Source of the DNA: an uncultured Gammaproteobacteria bacterium | GTDB taxonomy: Bacteria > Pseudomonadota > Gammaproteobacteria > Pseudomonadales > Azotimanducaceae | NCBI GenBank assembly: GCA_913044135.1 | Contig: CAJWOK010000004.1 | Location: 1,135-65,134, forward strand | DNA: 64,000 nucleotides | Direction: 5' to 3' | Shown here: positions 1 through 20,836 of the stretch, piece by piece | How the letters are laid out: each line of letters opens with the position of its first letter | Position numbering within the stretch: position 1 is the stretch's first letter | Notes under the pieces: generated by a model | Told to the model about the DNA's origin: nothing | What the model saw: only the letters and a program-made list of their open reading frames with translations | The model's database searches: none | Position numbers and translations under genes: made by a program

Positions 1-273
1 CTTTAGTCTTATCAAGATGTCGGAAGCACTTGTCATCGCCACTTCCTCTAACTCGAGGCGATTCATGGCAACGTCAATATTGTCGTTATAGGTGCCCATC
101 CGGTTGACCGCCCGATCCAAGTCATCGATTTTGCCAATCACTGTCGTATCATCGCTCGGCCGCAGCACCGCTTTACCCGTCGCCAACTTCTCGTTCGCTT
201 CAGCAGCGCGCATCTGAGTCTCTTGCATATTCCTTACGGATTGCTCATAAAACTGTCGAGTTGAAATCTGCAT
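1..273 (-). CDS. flgL: Flagellar hook-associated protein FlgL (N-terminal part, runs off window)
   Basis: Manual translation from ATG at 273: MQISTRQFYEQSVRNMQETQMRAAEANEKLATGKAVLRPSDD...YNDNIDVAMNRLELEE, a typical FlgL N-terminus. Directly downstream of flgK; not in the ORF track. Confidence 0.9.
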   Translation of the reverse strand, partial: MQISTRQFYEQSVRNMQETQMRAAEANEKLATGKAVLRPSDDTTVIGKIDDLDRAVNRMGTYNDNIDVAMNRLELEEVAMTSASDILIRLK

Positions 274-292
274 AGTCTACTTAATTTATTTG

Positions 293-3200
293 TTAGATTC
301 GAATAATCGAATCGAAAATGGTGTTAGCGGTTTGGATCAACTTGGCCGAAGCCTGATAGGCCTGTTGAAACTTAACTAGGTTAGAGGCCTCTTCATCAAG
401 ATTTACCCCGGCTATACCCTCACGGGATTCAACCGCTTGATCATGTACCACAGCGAGCGCGTCCTTCGACAACTCTGCCTGTCTGGATGAACTGCCCATG
501 CGGTTTACAAGTCCCGCGAAAGATTCATGAAAAGTGGTTCCGTTAGCAAAGGTCACCAGTTCCTCTAACTCCGATAGTTTGAGAATATTGTCTGAATTAC
601 CCGTCGCGTCTGCATTACCGTCGATTAGAAAAACGTCTCCGGCAGCGGGCGTACCGAGTAAATTTAAAGCAACATTTTGATAGCTGATGGCATCGCCCGC
701 AGTAAACGCTCTTTCTGCTAGAACGGTACCGGAAGTTTGATCAACAATCTGATATCGGTCTGCATCAACAAACTCTACCGCGACTGGGTTTTCCCGCAGG
801 GTCTGCGCATTTGCTGCAGCTTCAATGTAGTCGGCACTCAGCTGTACTGTGCTGGCTTGCGGTGCCGTCGTGAAGACGATCAAGTCCTCCTGCAAAGCAC
901 CTGGTACGGAAAGCTCCGCTCTAAAACCAATAGCACTGAGATCGGTAAATCCACCATTTGGACCCAAAGTTAATGCAACTTCTGCATCGGTCGTATCGCC
1001 GTCTTCTCGAACGTGAGTGAGTTTAAGCTGCGCCTGATAGCTTCCTGCTATCGCTCCAGCAGCACCATCGGCTGGGCCTATTTCAATGGTCTGGCCCGGA
1101 TCCTGCGGATCACTCGAAAAGATCAGCGCACCATCAAAGTCCTGACGGGCAATAACGCCAGTATCTGCTGAGGCCTGGTTAATAGCATCGACCAATTCTG
1201 AATTGGACAAGATGGGTGCCTCAGCACTAATTTGAACGCCATTCAAAGTAAGCTCGCTACTTAACTCAGAAATTTCTGAAGGCGCGATTCTAACGCTGTT
1301 TTCAATAGTCGCTGAGAGATCTAGCGCCAGTTCTTCGATGTTGTCATTCAACCAGGTCTGCACCGTTTCAGGCGTTAAAGCCTCACCGGCAGCAAGGTTA
1401 AGTTCGGTTAAGGCGTATCCGTTCAGATTAATAGCACCTGCGCCAACTAAGGTAATCTCGTCACCATCATTATTCACAGTGGCCGGCACATGGCCGCTTA
1501 ACAACGACGCTTCACGAATCAGCGAACGAGTGCCGTCGTCTTCTATTCTAAACTGTGAACTACCCACCTGGCCGGCCCGAACCTCAAGATCCTTATAGGT
1601 AATCGGTTCGACAGTTTTGGTTTGTGCCATGAGGATATTGGGAGCCGGTCCTACCGCAATGGCATTGCTCTCGAATCCCGGTGCACCCTTGATAACGAGC
1701 TCATTGTCGTCATTGATCTCCGCTACGACATCGGTCTCACCTGTCTTGTCATTAATCAGGTCACGTAAATCAGCCATTGACGGCGCAGGGGTTCCCGTTG
1801 AAATCTCAATGCCGTTCAAAGTGAGTGCACCGGTACTAGTAGATAGATCTTGCAGTGGCACAACGAGTTCAGCGAACCCATCATTAAGATACTGGCTGCT
1901 ATAAGTGACGCCGGGCATAAATCCATTTACTTCATCCAGCATCAGGTCTTGTTGGGCATCATTTAGCGTTTGCCCAAATATATGGCGACCATCTCGCGTA
2001 AAAACCTGCAGCTCGGCGGATAACGTGTCGTCTTGCTGCATAAACATACTGAGATCTTCGGTGCCTGCAGGGACCACAAACTGCGGTGCTCTCGCCGTCG
2101 TTAAAAATGAAGCCGCGTTTTGCCGGTTGGCATTGCTGGCTAGTTGCTCCGATAGTCTCGTTTCATCCGCATATTCAGGTGATATTGCGTTCAGGTTGGC
2201 AGTAGCGGATCCTAAATTTGATGATGCTGCCGTCACTCGAAATAGTGAGGCCGCCGCGACTTCTCTGGCATCGTCGATTGCGACCTGCATAGAGGCAGCC
2301 GCGTCGGTTTCGAGGCGAATGCTTATTTGATCGCCGCCAAGTGCCTGGCCGGTCAACTCCATCCGGACGCCATCCACCGTTAATGTCTGAGGGTCGCCAT
2401 AGCCATATTGTTTGTTGCCCACACTGTCAACACCAAACCACTGACCTCTTGAACCATCAAACTGCAAATCGATCGTTTGGACTGAAGTGATGGTGCCGCT
2501 TTGCGACAAAACGGTTGCTCCTGCAGCGCCTCGGCTCGCCGAGTAGTCGATACTGACCTGAGGCTGTATTGAAAATAAATCGCCGCCTGCATTACCTAAT
2601 AAATTCATGCCGCTTGCATGAATGGCATTCACCTCGGTCGTTACTGCAAGCGCCAGTTCTTCCAGATTTGCGCTTGCCGGGGTAAGCACTCTATCTCGAA
2701 ACAACGCAAGTCCGCCGAGCTCACCACCAGTCAAGCGCGACAAGTTCATGGAACGGTCTGCGAAATTAAGAGAAAAATTCGCAACACCCAACTGTCCGTC
2801 GGTGTCACTAAGTCGTAGCGTGCCGTGCTCTCCGCCAGACACAAGTGTTTTGTTAGTAGCAGTCTCGCCGATATCAACCGTTACACTGCCGTTCTGCGCT
2901 GTGGTGACAAAAATGTCGGTCAAATCAGCGATTTGTCGAAGGAGGCTATCGCGGGTATCCAATAGGTCAGCGGGTTGACGGTCCAAGTCCTGCTTGGATC
3001 GCAGCTTAGTATTTACATACGCTAATTGCTCAGCAAATTCATTGATCGCACTGACCTTGCTCTCCATCGCGTCCTGGGTTTCAGAATTAAAACTATCGAT
3101 TTGCCCTGCTAACGCATTAAATCGTCCGGCAACCTGCCGAGCCGATTCAATCACCTGATCCCGCATCACTATAGAAGACGCGTCCGCGCCAAGACTATCG

Positions 3201-3550
3201 ACCTTATTGAAAAAATCCGCCATTGCGGGATTTAAAGAAGCTTGTTCAACACCAAACGCGTCGACCATGCGGCTGCTCAGATCGGCCAAGGTTTCCTGTG
3301 CCTTTAGATCACTGCCGCTACGTCGCACGGTGTCTTCTATGAGACCGTCATAAGCTCGGCGAACGCCCTCTGCAAGAGCACCAGTGCCAACCGAAAAACG
3401 ACCGATCGAGGCCGGTGTATTTTCGATATTGACCAGCTTTTGTTTGACATAGCCCTCAGTGTTCGCGTTAGCAATATTATTACTAACAACGTTGAGCGCG
3501 AGCTGGCTATTCCTAACCGCATTGGTACCGATAGTAAGTAAATCGCTCAT
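293..3550 (-). CDS. flgK: Flagellar hook-associated protein FlgK, greatly enlarged (1085 aa)
   Basis: N-terminal NNIANANTEGYVKQ and C-terminal GVNLDEEASNLVKFQQAYQASAKLIQTA motifs; position between flgJ and flgL. Confidence 0.95.
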   Translation of the reverse strand: MSDLLTIGTNAVRNSQLALNVVSNNIANANTEGYVKQKLVNIENTPASIGRFSVGTGALAEGVRRAYDGLIEDTVRRSGSDLKAQETLADLSSRMVDAFGVEQASLNPAMADFFNKVDSLGADASSIVMRDQVIESARQVAGRFNALAGQIDSFNSETQDAMESKVSAINEFAEQLAYVNTKLRSKQDLDRQPADLLDTRDSLLRQIADLTDIFVTTAQNGSVTVDIGETATNKTLVSGGEHGTLRLSDTDGQLGVANFSLNFADRSMNLSRLTGGELGGLALFRDRVLTPASANLEELALAVTTEVNAIHASGMNLLGNAGGDLFSIQPQVSIDYSASRGAAGATVLSQSGTITSVQTIDLQFDGSRGQWFGVDSVGNKQYGYGDPQTLTVDGVRMELTGQALGGDQISIRLETDAAASMQVAIDDAREVAAASLFRVTAASSNLGSATANLNAISPEYADETRLSEQLASNANRQNAASFLTTARAPQFVVPAGTEDLSMFMQQDDTLSAELQVFTRDGRHIFGQTLNDAQQDLMLDEVNGFMPGVTYSSQYLNDGFAELVVPLQDLSTSTGALTLNGIEISTGTPAPSMADLRDLINDKTGETDVVAEINDDNELVIKGAPGFESNAIAVGPAPNILMAQTKTVEPITYKDLEVRAGQVGSSQFRIEDDGTRSLIREASLLSGHVPATVNNDGDEITLVGAGAINLNGYALTELNLAAGEALTPETVQTWLNDNIEELALDLSATIENSVRIAPSEISELSSELTLNGVQISAEAPILSNSELVDAINQASADTGVIARQDFDGALIFSSDPQDPGQTIEIGPADGAAGAIAGSYQAQLKLTHVREDGDTTDAEVALTLGPNGGFTDLSAIGFRAELSVPGALQEDLIVFTTAPQASTVQLSADYIEAAANAQTLRENPVAVEFVDADRYQIVDQTSGTVLAERAFTAGDAISYQNVALNLLGTPAAGDVFLIDGNADATGNSDNILKLSELEELVTFANGTTFHESFAGLVNRMGSSSRQAELSKDALAVVHDQAVESREGIAGVNLDEEASNLVKFQQAYQASAKLIQTANTIFDSIIRI

Positions 3551-3993
3551 AGTTTGAGCTCCAAGCGAGGCAAATCAAGGGCTTTGGTGCCCGGCTGCAT
3601 AACCTCGTAGTTCTTAGCTTTGCGTGATAACGGTAACGATTCGTCAACAGGATTGAGCTGCCTTACTTTTGTGGGATCGGATTGTTCACGCCCATAAAAC
3701 TGTTCGAGCTGACGCTCTAGCGCGTCGGCAACGCCGAACCCACCAGACTTACTTAAATGCAGCGACAGTTCTTGGTCAAACATCGACTCGTATTGCTGCG
3801 ACGCATTCGAGTCCATTAGACCGGAACGCTCCGTCGCTTTGCGCATGGATTGCAGCATCATATTGACGAAGATCGACTCAAACTGTTGAGCGACCTCCTT
3901 TATCTTGCCTTTAGCGTCTTGCGCGGCGTCACTCTTTAGCTGAGCGAGCTCGGCAAAACCCAGAGCAGATGTTGTTGAATCGACAGTTTTCAT
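3547..3993 (-). CDS. flgJ: FlgJ rod-capping protein, rod-binding domain only (no muramidase domain)
   Basis: VAQQFESIFVNMMLQSMRKA...YESMFDQELSLHLS...G.G.AD motif; 148 aa; follows flgI. Confidence 0.9.
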   Translation of the reverse strand: MKTVDSTTSALGFAELAQLKSDAAQDAKGKIKEVAQQFESIFVNMMLQSMRKATERSGLMDSNASQQYESMFDQELSLHLSKSGGFGVADALERQLEQFYGREQSDPTKVRQLNPVDESLPLSRKAKNYEVMQPGTKALDLPRLELKL

Positions 3994-4001: not shown

Positions 4002-5177
4002 TCAGATAACAACCAGTTCAGCGCGCAGACTGCCGGCGCTCTTCAATGCTTCAAGGATGGCAATCAGAGATGATGGGCTCGCGCCAACCTGATTGACGGC
4101 ATCAACAATGTCGCGCAGGTCAACACCTGGCTGAAACAGGAACATGGGTCGGGCTTCTTCTTCCACCTGAATTTCGGCGTTCTGTACGCCGACTGCTTCG
4201 CCTGCTACACCGGCTTCGCCTGCGGCAATTTCCACATTTGGCTGGACGACTTCGTTGGTAGCGGAAATGGTGACCGAAATAGCGCCCTGGGTTACCGCGG
4301 CGGCGGTGACGCGTACGCCACGGCTAATCACCACGGTGCCAGTACGTGAGTTCACGACTACCTTCGCTTTCGGTTCGCCGGGAATCACATCCAGATTTTC
4401 AATCATGCTTACAAACGAGACTCTCGACGCTGGATTCTCCGGTGCGAGCACCGCGACAGATCGTCCATCCAGAGCAGTAGCTGTACCTAAACCGAAATTA
4501 TCATTGATCGCTGACGTGATTGCCGTAACTGTGGTGAAGTCGGACTGGGTCGTGTTAAACACTAAATATTCAGAGTCATGAAAAGGGGTTTCCACTTCTC
4601 TCTCAACAATAGCGCCATTGGGTACACGACCCGCTGTCGGAACGCCAATGCTAACCTGGTTGCCCGCGGCCTGAGCATCCACCGCTGTCACGGTTAACGC
4701 ACCTTGCGCAAGCGCATAAATTTCTCCATCCGCACCGCGCAATTCGGTCAGCACCAAATTGCCACCGCGCAAACTAGATGCAAGACCAATTGTGGCAACA
4801 TTCACGTCAATACGTTGCCCAGGCTTGGTGAAAGGCGGCAATGTTGCTGTCACCAGGACGGAAGCCACGTTATCCAATTTGGTTTTGTCGTAAGCAAGAC
4901 TGGCAACACCGCGAGCATATAGGTCGTAATTGGAAATGGGGCCGTCGACTTCTACACCTAAGCGTTCCAGGGTGGCTTTGAGGCTTTGCGCGGTGAACGA
5001 AATTTTATCTCTGTCACCCGTGCCCTGAAGGCCAACCACTAAGCCGTAGCCTATGAGCTGGTTAGGTCGCGCGCCCGCCAATGTGGTGAGGTCTTTCACG
5101 CGATCCGCAAATGCTTCGCTGGTTATGATGGTCAGCACTACGAACAACGATAAATATAAAAATTTAATTTTCTTCAT
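4002..5177 (-). CDS. flgI: Flagellar P-ring protein FlgI
   Basis: RVKDL...RPNQLIGYGLVVGLQGTGD, SSLRGG.L, VVVNSRTGTVV, C-terminal AILEALKSAGSLRAEL. Start at 5177 (MKKIK) preferred over 5192. Confidence 0.97.
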   Translation of the reverse strand: MKKIKFLYLSLFVVLTIITSEAFADRVKDLTTLAGARPNQLIGYGLVVGLQGTGDRDKISFTAQSLKATLERLGVEVDGPISNYDLYARGVASLAYDKTKLDNVASVLVTATLPPFTKPGQRIDVNVATIGLASSLRGGNLVLTELRGADGEIYALAQGALTVTAVDAQAAGNQVSIGVPTAGRVPNGAIVEREVETPFHDSEYLVFNTTQSDFTTVTAITSAINDNFGLGTATALDGRSVAVLAPENPASRVSFVSMIENLDVIPGEPKAKVVVNSRTGTVVISRGVRVTAAAVTQGAISVTISATNEVVQPNVEIAAGEAGVAGEAVGVQNAEIQVEEEARPMFLFQPGVDLRDIVDAVNQVGASPSSLIAILEALKSAGSLRAELVVI

Positions 5178-5179
5178 GA

Positions 5180-5893
5180 CTAAAACGGCCATACCTTATT
5201 AAAGAATTGCGTGCCCCAGTTCACTTTAGAGAAGTCTGCTAGCTCGCCTGTGCCTTGATATGCAATCTGCGCGCCAGCAATCCGCGAGGACAACACTGTG
5301 TTGTCCGGCTGAATGTCTTTAACGGCGATCACACCCACTAAACTCACCGTCTCGCTGCCTTCGCTTAACGACAGGCGCTTCTGTCCTTTGATGACTAAGT
5401 TGTCATTAGGCAGTACTTGCGTAACCATTACAGAAATTGCCCCAGACAACGTGGCAGCTTGCCGTGCCGTGCCGGAGCCTTTGGATTCGACGGTCAGGTC
5501 TTCGAAGTCAGTGCCTTTTAAAACATCACGACCCTGGCGTTTCATCCAACTTCCGCTGGTCGCATTGAGGGGCGCTGCGATAAGCGACTGCAGATTTTTT
5601 AAAGGCATATTTCGGCCTTCCTTCGAGGCTTCGAGGCCGTTGCTGCGACGCGCTTGAGTCGACTCATCCAGGATGACTGTGACGAGATCACCGACGACAA
5701 ATTGACGCCTGTTGCCAAAAAGCCGACTCCCGGTACTGTCAGCGAAAATAGAACCCGTCGGGATTACCGCACCCATTGGTTGCTGCGGTACGACTGGATA
5801 GTAAGGGTCTACAACCGCCTGCTGCGGCGGCAACGTTGTCGCGCAGCCCACGCTTAGCCAAGACAAAACCATAAGAATGCTTATTTTTTTCAT
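5180..5893 (-). CDS. flgH: Flagellar L-ring lipoprotein FlgH
   Basis: Lipobox LSVGC, GSIF, VGDLVTVILDE, VTQVLPNDNLVIKGQK, DIQPDNTVLSSRIA. Confidence 0.97.
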   Translation of the reverse strand: MKKISILMVLSWLSVGCATTLPPQQAVVDPYYPVVPQQPMGAVIPTGSIFADSTGSRLFGNRRQFVVGDLVTVILDESTQARRSNGLEASKEGRNMPLKNLQSLIAAPLNATSGSWMKRQGRDVLKGTDFEDLTVESKGSGTARQAATLSGAISVMVTQVLPNDNLVIKGQKRLSLSEGSETVSLVGVIAVKDIQPDNTVLSSRIAGAQIAYQGTGELADFSKVNWGTQFFNKVWPF

Positions 5894-5935
5894 TTTTTAC
5901 CTGCAAATACCAAGTGAATAGCTTTGTTAACCGTT

Positions 5936-6721
5936 TTATAGGTTGTTGTTCAGGAATCGAAGCATCGAGTCGACAGCTGAGATGGCTTTCGAGTTAACTT
6001 CGTAAGCTCGCTGGGTCTCAATCATGGTCACCAGTTCTTCTACAACATTGACGTTTGACGCCTCCAACATGCCTTGTACCAAGTCGCCGGCTCCCTGTTC
6101 TCCAGGGACCAAAAGAATTGGCGCACCGCTTGAGGCGGTTTCCTTAAATTGGTTTTGGCCCATCGCTTCTAGACCAGCAGGGTTCAAGAACCGTGCCACC
6201 TGTAGCTGGCCAATTTCCTGATTACCACCACCGTTAGCAAGCTCAACGCTGACGATGCCATCGGTGCCGACCGTGACAGACGAGGCTTCCTGTGGAATCA
6301 CGATTTGCGGCTGTAACAGCAGACCAGCTGGATTAACGAGTTCACCTTCTGCGGACAATTTAAAACTGCCGTCTCGTGTATAGGACAACGTTCCATCGGC
6401 CTGCACGATTTGAAAGTAACCCGGACCTTGAATCGCTACGTCTAAAGCATTCTCCGTAGAAATCATGTTGCCCTGGGTCTGAATTTTTTCTGAAGCCACA
6501 ACGCGCGTACCGGTACCCAACATAAATCCGGTAGGTGCTTCTGAATCGGCACCGGTTTGCCCGCCAGATTGACGGATGTTGAGATAAAGCAAATCTTCGA
6601 ACACCGCGCGATCACGTTTAAATCCGACCGTGTTTACATTGGCCAGGTTGTTCGCAATGACCGTCATACGCGTTTGCTGCGCGTTGAGGCCGGTTTTCGC
6701 TACATAAAGTGAAGAGTCCAT
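5936..6721 (-). CDS. flgG: Flagellar distal rod protein FlgG
   Basis: SLYVAKTGLNAQQ...NNLANVNTVGFKRDRAVFEDLLY; LEASNVNVVEELVTMIETQRAYEVNSK. Confidence 0.98.
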   Translation of the reverse strand: MDSSLYVAKTGLNAQQTRMTVIANNLANVNTVGFKRDRAVFEDLLYLNIRQSGGQTGADSEAPTGFMLGTGTRVVASEKIQTQGNMISTENALDVAIQGPGYFQIVQADGTLSYTRDGSFKLSAEGELVNPAGLLLQPQIVIPQEASSVTVGTDGIVSVELANGGGNQEIGQLQVARFLNPAGLEAMGQNQFKETASSGAPILLVPGEQGAGDLVQGMLEASNVNVVEELVTMIETQRAYEVNSKAISAVDSMLRFLNNNL

Positions 6722-6737
6722 AATATTGCCTCCAAAA

Positions 6738-11458: not shown

Positions 11459-14125
11459 TTAAGATCTAAGCAGCTCTAGGGCGAGCTGGTTTAATTGATT
11501 GGCCTGACTCAGCATTGAAGTGCCCGCTTGCTGCAACACTTGCGCTTTAGCTAAACGCGCGGATTCCAAGGCGAAGTCGGCGTCAGCAATCCGAGATCTA
11601 GCCGATTCGGTTTTTTCGGCAACGTTCATCAGGTTGAGGATTGAGTATTCCAACCGATTTTCTATAGCACCCAAATCGGCACGCGTTTGTGCAACGTGGT
11701 TTAGCGCCGCATCAGCGGTAGCTATAGCTGCAGTGGCACCCGCAATAGTCGAAATGTTTAAGGATGAAACAGTGTTCAAACTAGAACTTTCATCCTGGAA
11801 ATAACTTACTTTGCGAGCACCGAGGACGGAATTATTGGCGTCGAGATCCAGGGCAACGCCTGCGGCCGATTGGAGCGTAAAGCCTCCTAACGAAGCCGCT
11901 CCGGTTAAGCGAAGCTGTTCACCTCGAGCACCGGTGATCGTATTGTCAGCATCAAGAGCTACCTCGACACCGGCTGCGGTTGCAAAAGTAAAATCGCCTA
12001 ACCCGGCAGAACCTACCAACCGAAGTTGCTCGACGTCGGCGCCACCGACAGCGCTAGCGGTAAGCAGCCCAGTTAGGTCGGTTGCGTCAATCGCAGCCTG
12101 AAACGCTGCAGCGGTTGGTTCTGCTGGCGTGATCGTGTACTCCTCACCGCCGGCATTAATGACATATGAGGCATCGGTTAAATCCGCGAGAGCATCGGTA
12201 GTGGTCGAAACGCCGACGATGTCAGCGCCACTCACCGCGCCATCAGTGGAATTGTCCGCGGTGATTGCGATGGCGAGACCATCGGCGTCCTGTAAAACAA
12301 TATCGCCAAGAGTATCAACACCCGTCAGCTGCAATTTACCGCCGACATCAGCGGCAGTGATGCTGCCATTCAGATCAGTCGCATCGATAGCCGCTTGAAA
12401 GCCCTCTACGGTTGCTGCTCCAGGAGCGATAGCCGTTGCAACACCATCAACCATGATGTTGTAAGCGCCTGCGTTTAGATTCGCTAAATCTTCAGCCGTC
12501 TCCTTAACGGCAGCGGTGTCTGTAGCGGCACTCGTGCCGACTGCACTCGCCGTTACTAATCCCTTGAGGGCGGTCGCATCGATTGCTGTTTGAAAGGACT
12601 CGACTGTGGCCGCCGCCGGCGTTATCGCGTAGTCCACGCCATTAGACTGGATAATATAAGAACCGGCGGTCAGCGAAGATAATGTATCGTCGGTAGTAGC
12701 AACGGTCGCAATGTCCGTGCTCTTGACCTCGCCATCCGTTGAATCGGCGGCGCTCATGAAAATTGCCAACCCATTGGCATCCTGCAAAGTGAAGTCACCC
12801 AGCGTCTCAGAACCAGTCAGCTGTAGCTGCCCACCGAAGTCAGCAACCGTGATGTCTCCGGCGAGATTCGTGGCATCAATCGCGGCCTGGAAACCTGCAA
12901 CGGTAGCGGCAGCAGGGGTGATCTCAGTCGCCACCCCGTTGACCATAATGTTGTAGGTCGCATCTGTTAGGGTGGTAAACGCCGCATCAGTAATCTTGAT
13001 CGCAGCAGTATTATCACCGTCGTTTGCTTGCGTAATATCAAAGGTTTCGACGGAGTCTGCTCGGATTGATCCCGAGATAATGACGGCGTCATTGCCACCG
13101 CTGGACATCATCCGCACTGCAGAACCGATTTCTGTCGCGCCGAGGAAATCCAGTTTCTGAACCGTTAAATCCGATCCGGTCGATAAATTTTCAATCGTGA
13201 TGTCTTCTCCATCTCCATTGAAAAGCAGAATTTCATCGTTACTTGTTGATGACGCGGTAACGCCGCTTGCGCCCGACACAGCATTGATTGCGCGGACCGC
13301 ATCTGCTGTGGATGTGGAGGAAATACTAAAGTTGCCGGTAGAGGTGCCATTAATGTTCAGGCTATAAGTACCGGCGGTTCCATCCAGAGAAGCCAACTTT
13401 GCGTATGTGTGTGCAGCAGCTGTCACATCAGTTTGATTCGAAAATTGATTAATACGCGCGGCTGTATCCCTTGCACTGTCGGAGGCCAGCGCGTTGATTG
13501 TCACCGTTCCCAAACGTCCGCTCACAGTAAAATCTTCGGCCGCCGTCAGTTCGTTTGCCGGAGCAGTGGTTGCCGCGAGCTGTGCCGAAGGACCGTTGCC
13601 ATAAACGGTGTTTACCCCGGTATCGTCTATCGCGATGGATCGTACGCTCAACACGATCTCTTCCGACTGATACATGCCCAGCTTAATGGCTTTGTTAGTA
13701 AACGAGCCGTCGAGCACTTTTTCGCCGTTATAGTTAGACGTTTGCGAAATGCGGTTAATTTCTGAAACCAGCTGATTTACTTCCTCTTGGATATAAGAGC
13801 GGTCTTTTGCAGAGTAAGTTGCATTTGCGGCCTGAATCGCCAATTCGCGAATGCGTTGCAGCATGTCAGAAACCTGATCAAGAGATCCTTCAATGGCTTG
13901 AGTCAAAGCCATCCCGTCGCCAGCGTTTCTTACAGCCATATTTAGACCGGCTACTTCCGCAGACATGCGCTTTGATACCGCCATACCAGCGGCATCATCG
14001 GCTGAAGAGTTAAGTTTAGAACCTGACGCCAAGCGCTCCATAGCTAGGCCCACCTCGTCACTGGACTTCGCTAGCGCACGCTGAGCGCTCAATGAGGCGA
14101 TGTTTGTGTTAATTACGATAGACAT
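11459..14125 (-). CDS. fliC: Flagellin, 888 aa, with a large repeat-rich central region
   Basis: N-terminal INTNIASLSAQRAL...ERLASGSKLNSSADDAAG...LQRIRELAIQAAN; C-terminal RADLGAIENRL...SARSRIADADFALESARLAKAQVLQQAG. Confidence 0.97.
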   Translation of the reverse strand: MSIVINTNIASLSAQRALAKSSDEVGLAMERLASGSKLNSSADDAAGMAVSKRMSAEVAGLNMAVRNAGDGMALTQAIEGSLDQVSDMLQRIRELAIQAANATYSAKDRSYIQEEVNQLVSEINRISQTSNYNGEKVLDGSFTNKAIKLGMYQSEEIVLSVRSIAIDDTGVNTVYGNGPSAQLAATTAPANELTAAEDFTVSGRLGTVTINALASDSARDTAARINQFSNQTDVTAAAHTYAKLASLDGTAGTYSLNINGTSTGNFSISSTSTADAVRAINAVSGASGVTASSTSNDEILLFNGDGEDITIENLSTGSDLTVQKLDFLGATEIGSAVRMMSSGGNDAVIISGSIRADSVETFDITQANDGDNTAAIKITDAAFTTLTDATYNIMVNGVATEITPAAATVAGFQAAIDATNLAGDITVADFGGQLQLTGSETLGDFTLQDANGLAIFMSAADSTDGEVKSTDIATVATTDDTLSSLTAGSYIIQSNGVDYAITPAAATVESFQTAIDATALKGLVTASAVGTSAATDTAAVKETAEDLANLNAGAYNIMVDGVATAIAPGAATVEGFQAAIDATDLNGSITAADVGGKLQLTGVDTLGDIVLQDADGLAIAITADNSTDGAVSGADIVGVSTTTDALADLTDASYVINAGGEEYTITPAEPTAAAFQAAIDATDLTGLLTASAVGGADVEQLRLVGSAGLGDFTFATAAGVEVALDADNTITGARGEQLRLTGAASLGGFTLQSAAGVALDLDANNSVLGARKVSYFQDESSSLNTVSSLNISTIAGATAAIATADAALNHVAQTRADLGAIENRLEYSILNLMNVAEKTESARSRIADADFALESARLAKAQVLQQAGTSMLSQANQLNQLALELLRS

Positions 14126-14157: not shown

Positions 14158-14538
14158 TTATTCACCTCGGAGGGAACGACGGATGCCACCCACTCGATTC
14201 TCTAAAAATTGCAATGTCGCCGAATAACGCGTTGCTTCTTTACCGAATTGGGCTTGCTCATAGTTAACCTCTACAGAATTGTCGTTTTGCATTGGATTAA
14301 TCGGCACGCGGTAAACCAAATTTGCTTTCCGCTTGGCAGTGGCATCCATGTGGAGTGGACTCGTTCGCTGCATATCGGATGACGTTTGCTCTGCCATGAT
14401 TTTCTTAAAATCCATGTCCTGGGCTTTGTAGCCTTTGACATCTGAATTCGCGATATTTGACGAGATCATCGACAGTCGTTTGCTGCGCAAATCCAAAGCC
14501 TGTTCTGTTGGACCGAAAATATTGTTGTAGATTTGCAT
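14158..14538 (-). CDS. flgB: Flagellar proximal rod protein FlgB
   Basis: ALDLRSKRLSMISSNIANSDVKGYKAQDMDF, NDNSVEVNYEQAQF...RYSATLQFL. Confidence 0.96.
   Translation of the reverse strand: MQIYNNIFGPTEQALDLRSKRLSMISSNIANSDVKGYKAQDMDFKKIMAEQTSSDMQRTSPLHMDATAKRKANLVYRVPINPMQNDNSVEVNYEQAQFGKEATRYSATLQFLENRVGGIRRSLRGE
14298..14324 (-). promoter_or_regulatory. Candidate sigma28 (FliA) promoter inside flgB, oriented toward flagellin
   Basis: Minus strand reads CAAA-N15-GCCGATTA; the consensus is TAAA-N15-GCCGATAA. About 170 bp upstream of the fliC ATG. Confidence 0.55.
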
Positions 14539-14632: not shown

Positions 14633-14648
14633 AGCAAAGAGCGTGCCA
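14633..14648 (-). promoter_or_regulatory. sigma54 -24/-12 promoter of the flgB operon
   Basis: Minus strand TGGCAC-GCTCT-TTGCT matches TGGCAC-N5-TTGC exactly; about 95 bp upstream of flgB. Confidence 0.85.
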
Positions 14649-15101: not shown

Positions 15102-15243
15102 AAGTTACTTGAAAGAAATTAGGAAGAGGCGAAAGGCAGCGAAGCAACAGAACGCCTTGTAAAAAGCACCCTAAGAGCGCTACGTTTTCGGCGGCGGCTT
15201 TAATCCCGCTCGGCCCCACTGAGTGCATCGAACCGAGACTCGT

Positions 15244-16215
15244 ATGATAGAAATTACAAAAGACGCAGAGCCCGTTGTTAAAGGTGCCATCGCAAGGCTG
15301 ATTGAAATTGCTCGCGCCTGTATCTGGGCGTGGGTCTGCGTCTGTGCAACGGTACTGGCGCTGAGCTCAGCTTTCGCCAACTCGACGACACCACCCGGAT
15401 CATCCGAAAAAGCAGCGCTTGAGGGACAGATGACCGCCTGGCTAGAACAGCAAGGACTACCAAAAGCGTCGAAGCCTAATCTCAATGACCGCAGATTAAT
15501 CGTCCCTAACTGTTCGAAACCATTTAAGTTTTCTCGGTCCGGGCCGACTTCTCGTTTGATTGAAGTCACCTGCACCGCTCCTATATGGCAAAGGTGGCTG
15601 AAACTTGCTTCGGTACAAACACGATCCACTGCGGCCAGCACTGCTGCAACCTGGGTAACCTTTGCGGACTTAGCCGCCGGTGCGCAGCTAACTGCAGAAA
15701 ATGTGCGGCGGGTACAGCGACCGACTCGACAAATTCCTCGTAACGCACTTAGAGGCATTGATACGGTCGATGGATACTTTGTCATGAAGCCCGTAACGGC
15801 TGGAGATGTGTTGCTGACTGAAGACATCGGCAAGATGCAGAGGGTAGTAATCGTAACCAGGACTCTGCCCACAGGTGCTCCTCTAACAAGAGATTCGGTA
15901 ATCCTTGAGTCACGCCTTTTAGATGTACCGAAGGACGCGCTCAAAACGCTCGAAGGTTTGAATTTATTTACTACTAATCGCACCGTCGAAGGTGGAAGCG
16001 TATTAACCAAACGATTGTTGACGAGAGCAAAACTGATAAGACGCGGCGACTCTGTATTGGTTTCCGCGGACGGCTCCGGCTACGCGATCCAATCACAAGC
16101 AACAGCGCTGGAAGATGGTTATTTGGGCGAACGCATCAAAGTGCGTAGCAACGACAGCGGTAAGGATTTATTCGTAAAGATTACTGGTGAATCCAAAGCG
16201 GTGACCATAAAATGA
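15244..16215 (+). CDS. flgA: Flagellar P-ring chaperone FlgA with two SAF-like repeats
   Basis: Signal-peptide-like segment; C-terminal LIRRGDSVLVSA...IQSQATALEDGYLGERIKVRSNDSGK; divergent from flgB and upstream of flgM. Start uncertain (15223 GTG or 15244 ATG). Confidence 0.9.
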   Translation: MIEITKDAEPVVKGAIARLIEIARACIWAWVCVCATVLALSSAFANSTTPPGSSEKAALEGQMTAWLEQQGLPKASKPNLNDRRLIVPNCSKPFKFSRSGPTSRLIEVTCTAPIWQRWLKLASVQTRSTAASTAATWVTFADLAAGAQLTAENVRRVQRPTRQIPRNALRGIDTVDGYFVMKPVTAGDVLLTEDIGKMQRVVIVTRTLPTGAPLTRDSVILESRLLDVPKDALKTLEGLNLFTTNRTVEGGSVLTKRLLTRAKLIRRGDSVLVSADGSGYAIQSQATALEDGYLGERIKVRSNDSGKDLFVKITGESKAVTIK

Positions 16216-16233
16216 AAAAAACTAGAAAATACC

Positions 16234-16260
16234 TAAAGTTGCACTGTTCCTTACCGATTT
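16234..16260 (+). promoter_or_regulatory. sigma28 promoter of flgM-flgN
   Basis: TAAA-N15-ACCGATTT immediately upstream of flgM, the canonical location. Confidence 0.75.
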
Positions 16261-16313
16261 AACGTTCGAATAAACTATTTGTGTCTAAGAGTTAGAGACA
16301 TTTGAGATTAATC

Positions 16314-16610
16314 ATGGAAATCACAAAACAAACAGTTAATAACGCACAGCCCAAAGTTGACGCAGCCAGTGCCGCCAAAAAGACCGCAGAGGTGGAACCC
16401 CGAGATTCTGCGCGAGTAGAAAATAATAAAACTGAAGCGCATAAGAGTGTCGAGGTTGAATTAAGCGAAGCCGTTAAGTCTGCTGAGTCAAATGCAATTA
16501 TGGACGCCGCTCGAGTTCAAGAAATCCGTGCTGCTGTTGAAGCAGGTCGCTTCCCGCTCGACGCCAAGAAAATAGCTGAGAATTTTGCTGAACTTGAAAA
16601 GCTACTTTAG
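16314..16610 (+). CDS. flgM: Anti-sigma28 factor FlgM
   Basis: VELS...MDAARVQEIRAAVEAGRFPLDAKKIAENF; follows flgA. ATG at 16314 preferred. Confidence 0.9.
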   Translation: MEITKQTVNNAQPKVDAASAAKKTAEVEPRDSARVENNKTEAHKSVEVELSEAVKSAESNAIMDAARVQEIRAAVEAGRFPLDAKKIAENFAELEKLL

Positions 16611-16630
16611 CCGCTTCAGAAGGCTAAGCG

Positions 16631-17005
16631 TTGATTAAAGAACACTTATCGCGCCTTGACCAACAAGTCGAGGCGCTTTCGCTCGTGCTCGAAAAAGAAT
16701 TTACGGCACTCTCAAACCGCGACTTTGATACTTTAGAAGCCCTGCAAACGGAGAAAGTCGCGCTGCTCAGTGACATTGAATCGCTGATGTCAGCTGCCTT
16801 CCAGGAAGCAAATTCTGATCAAGCAGGCGCTCTGGATACGATAAGCAGCCGCCTCGAGGCGTGCAAGGAAGCTCATATACGCAACGACCTGGTCTTAAAA
16901 CGCCAGGTCGAAGTGACGCAAAATATTTTAACGACTTTGGTAGGCCAATCGTCGTCTTCCACCAACGTCTATACCAAGCTAGGCCGAATCAAACCGAACC
17001 GTTAA
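16631..17005 (+). CDS. flgN: Flagellar export chaperone FlgN
   Basis: LEKEFTALSNRDFDTLEALQTEK...CKEAHIRNDLVL...YTKLG; follows flgM. Confidence 0.85.
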   Translation: MIKEHLSRLDQQVEALSLVLEKEFTALSNRDFDTLEALQTEKVALLSDIESLMSAAFQEANSDQAGALDTISSRLEACKEAHIRNDLVLKRQVEVTQNILTTLVGQSSSSTNVYTKLGRIKPNR

Positions 17006-17320
17006 TTAGCTTGATGAATCCGGCTGCCGACCCTGCAGCCAGTAAACCCACGATAAGACTGTCGCCACTGACACATAAACTTCTTCCGGTATCTCTTCTT
17101 CCAGCTGAAGATAAGATAGCGTTTCTGCCAATACTGGGTCTTCCGCGATAGGAATATTGTGCTCTTTTGCAATGCGAATGATTTCCAGCGCGAGCTCGCC
17201 TTCTCCCTTCGCTTTGAGAATGGGCGCTCGGACCTTGTCATAAAGCAACGCGACCGCTTTTTTGCCAGCCTGACCCGCTGCTGGGTCAGTAGATTCTGCC
17301 GGACTACTCTGCTTATACAT
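17006..17320 (-). CDS. Stand-alone FlhB C-terminal-like (EscU/YscU/HrcU family, FlhX-type) protein
   Basis: KKAVALLYD...APILKAKGEG.LA.EI...AKEHNIPIAEDP.LAE.L..L.LEEEIPEEVY..VA.VL. The ATG at 17320 overlaps the upstream stop (ATGTATAA). Confidence 0.85.
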   Translation of the reverse strand: MYKQSSPAESTDPAAGQAGKKAVALLYDKVRAPILKAKGEGELALEIIRIAKEHNIPIAEDPVLAETLSYLQLEEEIPEEVYVSVATVLSWVYWLQGRQPDSSS

Positions 17321-18473
17321 CGATGGAAATTCCTTCGCTGGCTTGGCTGACAGATGCCTCGTTGCTCTGTTTCGCTCGCGCGAATGCGACAAAAGAGCCA
17401 AGCGTCACGCCGGCGTTGGCCAACATTTTGCGCAAATGAGGTTCTCCCTCTCTCGCGACCTGACAAACACCCGCATCGGGAACCCAAAGCCGTACCGCTA
17501 GCCCAGAATCCTGATAGCGCACATTCGCTGAAAGCTCTACCGATTGACTCTCTGCAGACTGATTTTCTGCGGATAGGGTTTCGACCGCCTTCTTTTTCGG
17601 CATATGCCCGTCTACGAGCTTCCAGGGAATAGTTAGGTCCACTTGCCAAGTTGTTTGGCCGGGACTATCCGGTTGATCTTCGGCACTGGCCTTTTCCTTA
17701 GTCAGTGTGATTAACACCGGATTTTGATCTGCAAAGATTAACGTCCAATGCAGCGACACGGAGCGTTGTGTCGCATGCGCTAGCGTTTCAAGTTGCAGTC
17801 CCGTCAGTTCATCTATTGCACCCCCCAGGGTACTGACATCCGCGCCTCGGGCGAGCAGGACACGACGGATCTCCATCAGCGCGGCCTTGATCCCCAGCTG
17901 GGACTGCGGGATACCCGCCTTTATTTGTTGTTCTGTGAACAAACCGCTTTGCAGAATGGCACGCTGGATGCTCGCGCCGTCTAAACGCAGACTAGTTAGA
18001 AGGTGATTATTGAGTTGCGCCAGCGCTGGCTCATTGCTCGCCTTACCAAGCAGACTCTCTAGAAAGCCACCAGTAAAAAGACGGGAGAGATGACCCGTGT
18101 TGGCTGCGCTGCTTTGCAGACGTTGCAGTTTAGCGAGGGGGCCGCTGACGTCCGGTCTGTCCCGCAAAGCGATTGAGCCATCCTTGCCGCCCTCTTTAAT
18201 TTGACGTAGCACCGCTTGGCCGCCAACCATCAACATTTGCAGCGACATTCGTTGTCCGTCTTGGCCCATTCCCTGGGGTAGCAAAACCCCTCTATTGCCG
18301 AAATTAAGGACGTTGCCATCTGCTTTTTGAGTAACGACACCGTGGATGATTTGACCAGGCTGCAGCCCGAGCAATCGGGCTTGCTCTGGCGCTAAGCGTA
18401 GAGAGGGGCCAGCCCCTTCAACATAGACAATGTTTGGTCGGGACTGGGTGCCAATTGACTCGGTGCTATACAC
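17313..18473 (-). CDS. FliK-like (hook-length control family) protein
   Basis: IQRAILQSGLFTE...IKAAL pattern; C-terminal WQVDL...L.V.LW...LRKMLANAGVTL FliK-C-like segment; coupled to the FlhB-C-like gene, a known pairing. Confidence 0.6.
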   Translation of the reverse strand: MYSTESIGTQSRPNIVYVEGAGPSLRLAPEQARLLGLQPGQIIHGVVTQKADGNVLNFGNRGVLLPQGMGQDGQRMSLQMLMVGGQAVLRQIKEGGKDGSIALRDRPDVSGPLAKLQRLQSSAANTGHLSRLFTGGFLESLLGKASNEPALAQLNNHLLTSLRLDGASIQRAILQSGLFTEQQIKAGIPQSQLGIKAALMEIRRVLLARGADVSTLGGAIDELTGLQLETLAHATQRSVSLHWTLIFADQNPVLITLTKEKASAEDQPDSPGQTTWQVDLTIPWKLVDGHMPKKKAVETLSAENQSAESQSVELSANVRYQDSGLAVRLWVPDAGVCQVAREGEPHLRKMLANAGVTLGSFVAFARAKQSNEASVSQASEGISIDV

Positions 18474-18479
18474 TGCGTC

Positions 18480-18989
18480 TCAAGGATACTGAACCCAACC
18501 AGCGCGCGGGTCTTTGTTCTTTCCGCGCATCTGCTCAAGGCCACCCGTCCTAAAAATGATTCGCTTAAAGTCGGCGACCGTAGGAATTCGTAACTCTTTC
18601 TTTGCAAACAACCAATTTGGATTGGAGCGCTTGAAGGCATGCGGATTAGCCGAAACAAAGGCTCGACGAAGCATACTTTCGTTAATCGGTGAATCGGCCA
18701 TGGTGCGCTTAATGATCAGGTCGAGATAATCCCCTTCCTGAACCATATATTTGCCGGGCGCGCCGTCTTTGTTTTCATCTGACCCGTCGTCGGACATGCT
18801 CATTACTGCTGTCTCCAAATCGGCGACCAGACGCCTCAAGGCACGGTCCAGCTCAGTATCATCTGGATATTGCGGCTCAGCAACAGCGACCTCTGCGGGT
18901 TCCACGAGTGCCGGTTCCGGCATAGGCGCAGGGCCTACGCATCCGCTAAGAAAGAAAATCGTTGCTGCAACAATCAAAGGCAATTTCAT
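18480..18989 (-). CDS. Lipoprotein with FimV-type LysM-like domain
   Basis: Lipobox FLSGC; YMVQEGDYLDLII...AFVSANPHAFKRSNPNWLFAKKELRIP resembles the FimV N-terminal LysM region. Confidence 0.7.
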   Translation of the reverse strand: MKLPLIVAATIFFLSGCVGPAPMPEPALVEPAEVAVAEPQYPDDTELDRALRRLVADLETAVMSMSDDGSDENKDGAPGKYMVQEGDYLDLIIKRTMADSPINESMLRRAFVSANPHAFKRSNPNWLFAKKELRIPTVADFKRIIFRTGGLEQMRGKNKDPRAGWVQYP

Positions 18990-18992: not shown

Positions 18993-20186
18993 TTATCCCT
19001 TCAACCTAAATGAATCGATGTCCGCCAGTGGAATAGCAATAGTTGGTTTAAGCACCGCTACACTATCACCGGCATATATGTTTAAAAAAGCCGTGCTCGC
19101 ATTTACTTGCACTACCTCGGCTAGGGCGACCGAGTTCATGCCAGCCTCTAAGCCAGAAGCCGTCAAGGATGCTGAGCTCGGTAGCAACACAAACTTCTGC
19201 CCAAGCTGGATACCCACATCTTCGCCGCCACTTACGGTTGGTAGGGCGGAAGCTAAATTAACTTCGAGCGAATTATCGACCACACAGTTAGCGATAGCCG
19301 CCAGTTCAGGCAGTTTCTCGTATAGCCACTGCGTCAGAGCGTCCTTAAGCGCGCCCTCCAATCGAACCGCCACGCCGCGGAGCTTAGGTCGGCTTACATG
19401 CAAACGCAGCTTATCCTCATAAAGACGCTGCCCGTTATCACTTGCTGTCACGGCTATGGTAAGTGCATAACCCGCCAACAATGACTCGGGCGGCCGGGCA
19501 CGCTCCATGATTCGAGTCACGCGCTGAGCAACCGAAACAGACAACTCTACTGTTAAGTCGCTTGCAGGCGTAGCCTTACTAACCATATAGCGATGATAAC
19601 GGGTGTTCGTCTTAACCTGCGTTTGCAGCGTGGTTGCAGCACCTAACACACCGCTCGCATCCTGCAACATGGCTTGTGTTACAAAACCTTGCACCTGGTG
19701 CCCCAATGCAAGCGCCGCGGTATCTTGCGCTACAACAGGCTGAGTCTTAATCAAGACTCTTTTCTTGCGAATGGCCGAGCCAACGCATTCGCCAGCAAAT
19801 TTCGAACCCAAAACCGGCTCAACCAAAGCGATTTCTGGCTGTCCGAAGCGATTGTCTGGGTGAGAAATGCGAATGCGCTCCAAGTCTATATGACTGAATA
19901 CGGAAACCGATTCGTCGTAACGACCCTCGCCGTCAATCCAGGCATTTGCGGTAACTCGGGATTCATGGTCAAACGCGTAGTCCATCAAGGACCGCTTGAT
20001 GGCCTCTAATTGTTCCTGTGCCGTAACAAATTCCTCGGTTACTAAGGCAGGTGCATTTTCATTAGCAAAGTCTTGGTCGAACTCTTGAGCAAAACACAGT
20101 GCACTGGCCATTGCCAACACCGCTAAACCGACGCCGCGGAATATCATTGTTATTGTGATCACGAGCATGATATTCGACCTTCTCAA
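18993..20186 (-). CDS. Exported hypothetical protein (possible FlgT-related by position)
   Basis: Signal peptide ending ALCFA; 397 aa; directly after flgP. C-terminal GGEDVGIQLGQKF...V.QV is loosely like the FlgT C-terminal domain. No firm family recognition. Confidence 0.45.
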   Translation of the reverse strand: MRRSNIMLVITITMIFRGVGLAVLAMASALCFAQEFDQDFANENAPALVTEEFVTAQEQLEAIKRSLMDYAFDHESRVTANAWIDGEGRYDESVSVFSHIDLERIRISHPDNRFGQPEIALVEPVLGSKFAGECVGSAIRKKRVLIKTQPVVAQDTAALALGHQVQGFVTQAMLQDASGVLGAATTLQTQVKTNTRYHRYMVSKATPASDLTVELSVSVAQRVTRIMERARPPESLLAGYALTIAVTASDNGQRLYEDKLRLHVSRPKLRGVAVRLEGALKDALTQWLYEKLPELAAIANCVVDNSLEVNLASALPTVSGGEDVGIQLGQKFVLLPSSASLTASGLEAGMNSVALAEVVQVNASTAFLNIYAGDSVAVLKPTIAIPLADIDSFRLKG

Positions 20187-20199
20187 CCTAACTTACGGG

Positions 20200-20730
20200 C
20201 TACAGACGCGTCACGACTCGGACACGACGACCGCGAGTTTCTGTCGTTTTAAACTCGCCGATTAGCTCATCGATCACAGATTGCGATAGGGATAGTTTCG
20301 TTTCATAGCTTTCTATACCGATTGGCGTAATGCTGACCAAGCGTGCCCCGTAGATCAAACCTTGCACTCGGCTACGTAGCTTGTCACCAACCAAAGAAAG
20401 ATCATTAACCTGGCTGTTGCTCTCTAAATACTGACCGTATACCTGCTCTGCGAGGCTCCGATAAGCATCTATTTTTGACGCGCGGATGGCCATTAATCTG
20501 CGCTGGGCAGGGCTGTCTCCCTGTTGGGCATCAATTACCGCATAGCCCATGGCCACAATGCCATCTACTTCTGGAGAGTTCATGTTAGCAGCGAGCATCG
20601 CACGCGAATCGCCTGCTGGCGATGCACAGCCGGCTACAAGCAACACCATAGCCGCAGCAAAAATGCCAAAACTACGACCCTTCCGGGCACCCAATTTATC
20701 TATCGCGGTGTGTGTTTGCATAAGCTGCAT
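20200..20730 (-). CDS. flgP: FlgP/LPP20-family lipoprotein
   Basis: Lipobox LVAGC; A.GYA...AQRRLMAIRASKIDAYRSLAEQVYG...V.GLI.GA, the FlgP signature. ATG at 20730 has an AAAGGA RBS. Confidence 0.85.
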   Translation of the reverse strand: MQLMQTHTAIDKLGARKGRSFGIFAAAMVLLVAGCASPAGDSRAMLAANMNSPEVDGIVAMGYAVIDAQQGDSPAQRRLMAIRASKIDAYRSLAEQVYGQYLESNSQVNDLSLVGDKLRSRVQGLIYGARLVSITPIGIESYETKLSLSQSVIDELIGEFKTTETRGRRVRVVTRL

Positions 20731-20809
20731 TATTTTGTCCTTTGTTAAGTTGTCGATCAGCACGCACAACGCGCGATCTGCTGGCGTTTGCCATAACGGG
20801 TTGCCAAGT

Positions 20810-20836
20810 AAATCGGCCATTCCGGCGAAACCTTGA
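20810..20836 (-). promoter_or_regulatory. Candidate sigma28 promoter of the flgP operon
   Basis: Minus strand TCAAG-N14-GCCGATTT matches the Pseudomonas-type FliA consensus, about 80 bp upstream of the flgP ATG. Confidence 0.65.

Follow-up and report, generated by a model that had tools for sequence, protein, structure and literature searches.

Does a flagellum whose hook, junction and filament proteins are all unusually large belong to an uncharacterised type, or does it combine parts already known? The question is raised by a gene cluster in a stretch of 64,000 nucleotides (nt) from contig CAJWOK010000004.1 of assembly GCA_913044135.1 (positions 1,135 to 65,134), which we call the window. 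The cluster supplies the flg half of a flagellar system of polar type, under sigma-54 and sigma-28, in an uncultured marine gammaproteobacterium of the order Pseudomonadales. A preliminary description, made from the sequence, reported a hook protein FlgE of 937 amino acids (aa), a junction protein FlgK of 1085 aa and a flagellin of 888 aa beside FlgB, FlgC, FlgD, FlgF and FlgG of ordinary size, and proposed an uncharacterised flagellar type. Open reading frames (ORFs) and Pfam matches bore out these sizes. The type, in the strong sense, did not hold up: H-ring proteins, the Fla1 gene set, Campylobacter hooks and giant flagellins are already known. We found that the window holds a distinct, unstudied, monophyletic flagellar branch made from recognisable parts. 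It is not a new kind of flagellum, since every one of its odd components is matched by one already studied in another system. The best explanation of the whole, in which we have moderate confidence, is a flagellum of what we call type B, with an enlarged hook and junction, an H-ring-like collar and a specialised flagellin encoded within the flgB operon.

In this order, hook, junction and flagellin proteins are repeatedly enlarged together, as one coupled trait, through two separate FlgE insertion sites. We compared open-frame lengths in 151 genomes sampled evenly from the order, using Spearman rho.

FlgE and FlgK: rho 0.82, n=95
FlgE and FlgK, family means: rho 0.85, n=40
FlgE and longest flagellin: rho 0.71, n=86
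FlgK and longest flagellin: rho 0.68, n=90

That is, the enlargements that the preliminary description had grouped together are phylogenetically correlated (0.68 to 0.82 across the sample). All 11 genomes with FlgE of at least 900 aa and FlgK of at least 950 aa, from six families, also have a flagellin of at least 850 aa, and of the 12 genomes with a flagellin this long, 11 carry the giant FlgE and FlgK pair. Contrasts within families move together as well: FlgE/FlgK lengths are 1163/1152 versus 432/660 in family f20, and 1003/1140 versus 449/640 and 410/639 in f53. Within the order, the window's FlgE lies at the 87th percentile and its FlgK at the 95th.

The two insertion sites separate systems that we labelled type A and type B, names coined in this analysis; the window belongs to type B. 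With a 405-aa FlgE from the order as the reference for numbering, the insertion is at residues 168-174 in type A (for example, genomes G045, G048 and G001) and at 224-230 in type B. Type-A FlgJ is full length in G045 and G001. MotY is present in G045, the only type-A genome searched for it. Lineages f10 and f52 have a canonical FlgT, and none was detected in G048. All four type-A lineages searched for FliD (G045, G048, G087 and G180) have a giant one, of 1165-1438 aa. Type B, comprising the window, G014, G055, G088 and freshwater metagenome-assembled genomes (MAGs), has a short FlgJ, a divergent FlgT and FliD of 454-491 aa. FliD stays in this range even in G055, where both detected flagellins are ~850-900 aa; therefore, a giant cap is unnecessary for large flagellins.

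Type B is one lineage. In a tree of FlgG, FlgH and FlgI, all 13 type-B systems formed a single clade with support 1.0. Strong full-length matches to the type-B FlgT were found in 8 sampled genomes. FlgK was at least 998 aa in 6 of the 6 with assembled genes, and FlgE was at least 933 aa in 5 of the 5 in which it was intact (that of G136 is split across contigs). The co-occurrence of envelope genes with the enlargements, which the preliminary description had suggested, is thus real. Type B is common in marine and freshwater metagenomes; judged from record names, no named cultured member was among the matches.

The features of the cluster, in window coordinates, are as follows.

1..273, minus strand: flgL (hook-associated protein 3), N-terminal 91 codons in the window, with a Flagellin_N match
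293..3550, minus strand: flgK (hook-associated protein 1), 1085 aa, with Pfam Flg_bb_rod, FlgK_D1, Flagellin_IN and Flg_bbr_C
785..2200, minus strand: insertion in FlgK at about residues 451-922 (~470 aa), acidic, with IN-motif modules, mapped on a 629-aa FlgK of the same order
3547..3993, minus strand: flgJ, 148 aa, rod-cap scaffold only, with Pfam Rod-binding alone
4002..7484, minus strand: flgI (396 aa), flgH (237 aa), flgG (261 aa) and flgF (248 aa), for P ring, L ring and distal rod, by Pfam, of ordinary size
7506..10319, minus strand: flgE, 937 aa, with Pfam Flg_bb_rod, D1, a split FlgE_D2 and Flg_bbr_C
8028..9602, minus strand: insertion in FlgE at about residues 240-764 (~520 aa), nested in domain D2
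10330..11441, minus strand: flgD (hook cap, 226 aa) and flgC (141 aa), by Pfam, of ordinary size
11459..14125, minus strand: flagellin, 888 aa, between flgB and flgC, with Pfam Flagellin_N and Flagellin_C
11726-13696, minus strand: variable region of the flagellin, about residues 144-800, with four repeated modules
14158..14538, minus strand: flgB, 126 aa, by Pfam
14633..14648, minus strand: sigma-54 type -24/-12 element TGGCACGCTCTTTGCT, 110 nt upstream of flgB
15223..17005, plus strand: flgA, flgM and flgN, with Pfam ChapFlgA/SAF, FlgM and FlgN
17006..17320, minus strand: small protein like the C-terminal domain of FlhB, ~104 aa from an internal ATG, with Bac_export_2
17313..18473, minus strand: FliK-like paralogue, 386 aa, with a weak Flg_hook match
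18480..18989, minus strand: lipoprotein with a LysM/FimV-like C-terminal domain, 169 aa, lipobox LSGC
18993..20186, minus strand: divergent FlgT (H-ring protein), 397 aa, by Pfam, profile and Foldseek
20200..20820, minus strand: FlgP lipoprotein, 206 aa, by profile against solved FlgP; LPP20 family
21102..26083, plus strand: flhA, flhF, flhG and fliA, by NCBIfam FlhA, a weak FlhF match, a MinD-like match and FliA

According to the ORF list and Pfam, the first minus-strand block reads flgB, flagellin, flgC, flgD, flgE, flgF, flgG, flgH, flgI, flgJ, flgK, flgL. The genes flgA, flgM and flgN are transcribed divergently from flgB, and beyond them lies a second minus-strand block with the FlhB-C-terminal-like, FliK-like, 169-aa lipoprotein, 397-aa and FlgP-like genes. 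After the FlgP gene come flhA, flhF, flhG and fliA on the plus strand, which are part of the system although they fall beyond the region (1-20836) of the preliminary description. About 11 related species-level genomes, among them the marine MAG 'Gammaproteobacteria bacterium NP980', retain this layout, including the order flgB-flagellin-flgC that the preliminary description had pointed out. In these relatives FlgE is 930-958 aa, FlgK 975-1098 aa and FlgJ 146-153 aa.

We found that the FlgE insertion is a large, probably folded addition to an otherwise recognisable hook protein. The protein matched PF00460, PF22692, PF07559 (split) and PF06429, and FlgE chains in the PDB at E-values of 1e-59 to 1e-64. 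Those chains align to residues 1-240 and 764-937 only. By PDB chain length, FlgE is 402-403 aa in Salmonella and 851 aa in Campylobacter jejuni. An AlphaFold2 model made with 42 homologues had a predicted local distance difference test (pLDDT) score of ~85-94 throughout the insert, in which helix-plus-beta modules recur and one part is rich in beta structure. A folded and not a disordered insert is thus predicted, which answers for FlgE, the one insert modelled, a doubt that the preliminary description had raised about the inserts in general. Homologues of the insert formed 128 clusters at 90% identity, all of them FlgE proteins (818-1564 aa) from metagenomes and MAGs.

We also compared the FlgE model with solved structures. 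Foldseek with the whole model gave 5jxl as the best match, with a template modelling (TM) score of 0.17-0.19 driven by the common FlgE core. Only that core was returned, and the search was dropped as a source of information on the insert. Homology between the insert and domains D3/D4 of the C. jejuni hook was not found: phmmer placed 5jxl and 5az4 at the termini only, and the Foldseek scores were those just given.

The junction protein carries a large insertion too. FlgK was identified by PF22638 (E 8e-53) together with both termini, by FlgK chains in the PDB (E 8e-44) and by its place between flgJ and flgL. Its insertion falls at residues 452-470 of the 629-aa reference, and solved FlgK structures align to about residues 1-480 only; FlgK is 553 aa in Salmonella and 608 aa in C. 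jejuni (PDB chain lengths). The insert matched Flagellin_IN (E 1.5e-8) and was 29% identical over 164 aa to the middle of FlgL. Its homologues are FlgK proteins only, again from metagenomes and MAGs. The complete flgL (C4:205-1407) encodes 400 aa with one IN-type middle module, and its product is 54% identical to FlgL of the nearest relatives.

FlgJ, which the preliminary description took to have no muramidase, consists of the Rod-binding domain and covers only the first ~100 of the 294 positions in the FlgJ model TIGR02541. A lytic transglycosylase with an SLT domain (352 aa, plus strand, C24:21069-22127) is encoded on another contig of the same genome bin, in the fliE-R/flhB operon region, between fliO and fliP and on the opposite strand. 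Read by eye, it has an apparent N-terminal signal segment. This protein is likely an SltF-like partner of the muramidase-less FlgJ, with the attribution of contig C24 to the organism unproven.

The flagellin gene inside the flgB operon appears to be expressed with the rod and hook genes. Its product is a flagellin by Flagellin_N (E 2e-37) and Flagellin_C (E 3e-22), and many solved flagellins match. Residues 1-363 align to residues 1-364 of the B-type flagellin of Pseudomonas aeruginosa (5wk5), an alignment that makes one outer region of the Pseudomonas (DE) type likely, and repeats start at residues 391, 490, 555 and 654. At 888 aa it is below the 1000-aa limit for 'giant' flagellins and falls in the 'large (>800 aa)' class of PMC6248924. 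The gaps between flgB and the flagellin gene (32 nt) and between the flagellin gene and flgC (17 nt) each contain a ribosome-binding site, and a terminator scan found no terminator in either. The sigma-54 pattern TGGCAC-N5-TTGCT was upstream of flgB in 7 of the 7 clade genomes examined. The gene is thus apparently co-transcribed from a conserved sigma-54 promoter. We also considered a sigma-28 promoter inside flgB that would drive the flagellin gene, at the motif CAAA-N15-GCCGATTA (window 14298-14324, minus strand), ~180-200 nt upstream of the flagellin start. The motif was present in this genome alone (0 of 6 relatives). It was therefore treated as a chance match, and the candidate promoter was rejected.

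In a tree built on the D0/D1 cores, the embedded flagellins formed one clade (support 0.985), apart from the flagellins encoded beside fliD. The embedded flagellin is probably an old, specialised paralogue that would serve as a hook-proximal subunit, by analogy with flagella built from more than one flagellin.

The second minus-strand block encodes homologues of H-ring proteins. The preliminary description had seen here a dedicated envelope module. The module is real and accompanies the enlargements, and its parts proved to be the known H-ring proteins FlgP and FlgT. The assignment of FlgP was upheld: a profile of 6 orthologues matched solved FlgP chains (9yec and 8z5n) at E 2e-22 to 7e-21, all 6 members belong to the LPP20 family, and the cysteine of the lipobox, GC(A/T), is conserved.

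Three independent lines of evidence, from sequence family and predicted three-domain fold, identify the 397-aa protein as a divergent FlgT. Pfam FlgT_C or FlgT_N matched 8 of 29 homologues. A profile of the family matched FlgT in the PDB (3w1e and 8z5n) at E 2e-6. An AlphaFold2 model (pLDDT 82.6) had two Vibrio FlgT structures as its top Foldseek matches (E 1.6e-12 and 2.6e-11, over ~370 columns), at 13-14% identity in the structural alignment. A word-based homologue search found only the protein itself, and an exhaustive HMMER search was necessary; in 1.84 billion representative proteins, this yielded no more than 48 clusters of homologues. The N-terminal segment, read by eye from the translation, resembles a signal peptide.

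The remaining genes of the block were less clear. For the 169-aa protein, described preliminarily as a FimV-like LysM lipoprotein, the lipobox stands, and the LysM and FimV matches are weak: FimV_core matched at E 1e-4, below the cut-off, and an orthologue profile matched the LysM regions of Kbp and LytE at E 6e-4 to 2e-3. The 386-aa protein is a second FliK, as a canonical FliK of 468 aa is encoded in the fli operon (C24:24458-25864); G014 and G055 likewise have two FliK copies. In type-B relatives too, the FliK-like gene adjoins the FlgT and FlgP genes. It overlaps the small FlhB-like gene by 8 nt, and canonical FliK and FlhB are both encoded on C24. The small protein matched positions 262-335 of Bac_export_2 (E 2e-19) and TIGR00789 (flhB_rel), and is reminiscent of Helicobacter FlhX. 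The envelope module and the divergent flhA-flhF-flhG-fliA genes are kept together in G014, G004, G027, G055 and a freshwater MAG.

We searched for further outer-ring proteins. MotY_N (PF18393) was not found in G000, G014, G004, G005, G055 or G088, and the control G045 was positive. FlgO (PF17680) was not found in a search that matched no control genome either. A Sel1-repeat protein on contig C132 of the bin was considered as MotX and rejected, as its match was weak and generic (23 bits against a cut-off of 330).

FlhF (window 23267-24487, plus strand) had been called degenerate, and we agree. It retains the N-terminal B domain and the P-loop (G1) and has lost the G2, G3 and G4 consensus; it scored 69 bits against a cut-off of 174 for TIGR03499, and its SRP54 domain matched at E 0.056. 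Judged against the GTPase consensus, the three motifs read ETCEDT, DTQA and TRAD. The erosion is common to G014, G004 and G027, whereas the more distant G055 keeps G3 (DTSG) and G4 (TKLD). FlhF of this close clade is probably a conserved, GTPase-impaired form.

The closest counterpart, by gene set and published description, is Fla1 of Rhodobacter (Cereibacter) sphaeroides. Fla1 was acquired from a gammaproteobacterium. It has an FlgK of 1363 aa with a bulky junction seen by electron microscopy, a single-domain FlgJ with SltF, a distant FlgT that forms an H ring, FlgP, no MotX or MotY, and sigma-54 control (PMC7277832). The window shares the giant FlgK with conserved ends and a large non-conserved centre, the FlgJ without muramidase and a separate SLT enzyme among flagellar genes (given the attribution of C24), the distant FlgT homologue, the FlgP lipoprotein and sigma-54 control; MotX and MotY are absent from Fla1, and MotY_N was not found here. 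In contrast to the window, FlgE of Fla1 is ordinary (423 aa, compared to 937 aa) and its flagellin gene is outside the flgB operon. Descriptions of Fla1 mention no LysM lipoprotein, no FliK-like paralogue and no eroded FlhF.

The enlarged hook has counterparts in C. jejuni and Helicobacter pylori (FlgE of 851 and ~718 aa; 5jxl, 5az4 and 5npy), where extra outer domains also project out of D2. Campylobacter FlgK is co-adapted to the enlarged hook (PMC5691160), a likeness to the diverged junction proteins here, and the Campylobacter motor has an FlgP-based disk. The two differ in that the FlgE insert lacks sequence similarity and has low TM scores, in the size of FlgK (608 aa in Campylobacter), in the accessory proteins PflA/B and FlgQ of Campylobacter, and in lineage. 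The Vibrio polar flagellum has two outer rings, an H ring of FlgT, FlgP and FlgO and a T ring of MotX and MotY (3w1e and 8z5n). The module resembles them in that FlgT and FlgP are encoded beside flg genes, and the FlgT fold was recovered at full length. Unlike the Vibrio H and T rings, the system in the window has no detected MotY, no FlgO in the search that lacked a positive control, a very divergent FlgT, and a LysM lipoprotein and FliK-like gene in neighbouring positions.

Greatly enlarged flagellins occur in other marine gammaproteobacteria, both in type A and in Bermanella marisrubri and Oleibacter marinus, where giant flagellins give thick filaments (PMC6248924). In our sample, these lineages (Bermanella/Oleibacter and type A) also show giant FlgE and FlgK. 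Type B differs from type A in its FlgE insertion site, normal FliD, short FlgJ and divergent FlgT. Finally, a second, hook-proximal flagellin is known in Shewanella putrefaciens and H. pylori (summarised in PMC11532411). As in those two-flagellin filaments, one flagellin here is under earlier control and relatives have several flagellins. Unlike in those systems, the early flagellin gene is within the rod/hook operon, an arrangement that we did not find described.

Based on these comparisons, the type-B flagellum could be assembled as follows. The ~120 copies of FlgE that build the hook would carry their extra domains as an outer layer, which would widen and probably stiffen the hook, as D3/D4 do in Campylobacter. 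Eleven giant FlgK copies would make a bulky junction, as in Fla1. FlgP and FlgT would surround the L and P rings with a collar resembling the H ring. MotY was not detected, and the link from this collar to peptidoglycan may instead be made by the LysM lipoprotein. The embedded flagellin, made with the hook genes, would form a specialised, probably hook-proximal segment of the filament, and the rest of the filament would be made from other flagellins, encoded beside fliD in relatives.

Several points weigh against this reading. Both the mechanical role proposed for the inserts and the hook-proximal role of the embedded flagellin are arguments from analogy, the latter drawing on operon position and on Shewanella and Helicobacter. 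Type B is known here from its genes, and the matches behind the LysM assignment are weak. No flagellin other than the embedded one was found in the bin, and the two flagellins that a Flagellin_C search found in G055 are both large (851 and 906 aa). The bin is imperfect: it lacks fliD and has at least one contig (C132) from a related population, and a foreign origin is conceivable also for C24, the contig of the SLT and canonical FliK genes. Last, hidden Markov models (HMMs) of three FlgE insert modules matched no FlgK, FlgL or flagellin among the 6550 ORFs of the genome. There is therefore no single coat module common to the enlarged proteins in this genome; that idea was rejected, and module sharing is limited to FlgK and FlgL.

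The alternative that survives best, which we nevertheless think unlikely, is that the 888-aa flagellin is the filament protein itself, so that hook, junction and filament would all be thick and domain-coated, a new type for adhesion, evasion of phages or grazers, or high-load swimming. The single flagellin of the bin, the large flagellins of G055, the 11 of 11 genomes in which giant FlgE and FlgK accompany a flagellin of at least 850 aa, and the thick filaments of Bermanella and Oleibacter (PMC6248924) all fit this idea. However, no fliD was found in this bin or in three other bins of the clade, and several contigs end at flagellin arrays; the fliD/fliC locus is thus missing from the bin. Relatives have a separate fliD locus with 2-4 more flagellins of 271-933 aa, and in close relatives these include minimal ones of 271-281 aa.

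G014: fliD 456 aa; flagellins beside fliD of 933, 272, 271 and 493 aa
G004: fliD 464 aa; flagellins beside fliD of 838 and 281 aa
G005: fliD 468 aa; flagellins beside fliD of 520 and 491 aa

The size of the embedded flagellin is itself not conserved in the clade. Its orthologues are 587-929 aa, and in sister species they are as short as 587-608 aa while FlgE and FlgK remain large. In addition, the embedded gene belongs to a separate paralogue class in a sigma-54 operon, and all of the other components have characterised counterparts (PMC7277832). A thick, domain-coated filament, as the preliminary description had it, was thus not established.

The locus in G014 (G014:C101:104000-123500) has an extreme mix of sizes, with the 933-aa flagellin followed by the two minimal ones and then the 493-aa one.

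The type-B reading could also be extended to an unimaged architecture in every part. The hook and junction would be wide and armoured with domains, the flagellin of the rod/hook operon would be a proximal segment matched to them in diameter, the FliK-like and FlhB-C-like pair would act as a second ruler and switch to time or measure this additional step of assembly, a LysM-anchored collar would replace the T ring, and a GTPase-dead FlhF would direct polar placement. Taken together, this is quite improbable in our view.

It is also doubtful, and we give it little credence, that the inserts are mainly non-mechanical decoration, that is, fast-evolving acidic domains under selection to adhere or to vary as antigens or phage receptors, and that the coupling of sizes is a by-product of shared exposure. 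The inserts of FlgE, FlgK and the flagellin are all strongly acidic (net charge -59 to -67, with -67 for FlgE by composition) and have no cysteine, the flagellin insert differs greatly in length between sister species, and FlgK inserts are only ~40% identical among relatives, as decoration would have it. Against this, FlgE and FlgK lengths are nearly constant in the clade, and FlgE is 53-64% identical among relatives over its full length including the insert; these therefore indicate structural constraint. Pfam scans detected no enzyme or adhesin domain, and R. sphaeroides swims less well when parts of the non-conserved region of its FlgK are deleted (PMC7277832). An artefact, in which chimeric assembly, fused genes or frameshift read-through would account for the long ORFs, might be feared in a bin of 140 contigs with at least one foreign contig; it has practically no probability. 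The enlarged ORFs and the flgB-fliC-flgC order recur in ~11 relatives, many independent assemblies contain complete orthologues that are equally long (some on contigs of 0.3-2.9 Mb), there are no internal stops, and the FlgE insert is confidently predicted to fold; conservation has already refuted the artefact.

We return to the type-B flagellum with enlarged hook and junction, and to what the coupling means. Thomson et al. (2018; PMC6248924) ask if other flagellar components are correspondingly large in bacteria whose flagellins are giant, and do not treat FlgE or FlgK; PMC11532411 surveys flagellin outer-domain diversity without hook or junction. In limited literature searches we found no paper on coupling of axial protein sizes across the order. 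At the level of sequence, the order-wide lengths answer the question with yes. The coupling of hook, junction and flagellin arose at least twice, by different FlgE insertion sites, and types A and B differ in FliD enlargement, a natural experiment on which axial parts must match in diameter. Type B unites an extreme hook, an H-ring-like collar, a flagellin in the rod/hook operon and an FlhF with eroded GTPase motifs. These features bear on hook mechanics, the ordering of filament segments and the working of FlhF, and are testable if a representative is cultured or is imaged in an enrichment.

The bin that contains the window is 3.0 Mb. Its contig C132 (4.2 kb, outside the window) carries a partial FlgL gene, a 144-aa gene, the Sel1-repeat protein and a ClC-type channel. 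Proteins of C132 were 73-78% identical to those of the G014/G023/G002 subclade, compared to 41-54% for the nearest relatives of the window. A second flgL paralogue was rejected, as these identities point to the G014 subclade; from them, C132 is most likely a co-binned contig of a second, related population.

The rest of the window contains glmS, glmU, the ATP synthase operon, parAB, rsmG, mnmG, mnmE, yidC, rnpA, dnaA, dnaN, recF and gyrB, names assigned from ORF sizes and order, without a Pfam scan. This region is Pseudomonas-like, with a Pseudomonadales-like gene order around the replication origin. An AhpD-family protein (window 27310-27708, plus strand) has weak matches to NCBIfam selenoprotein models.

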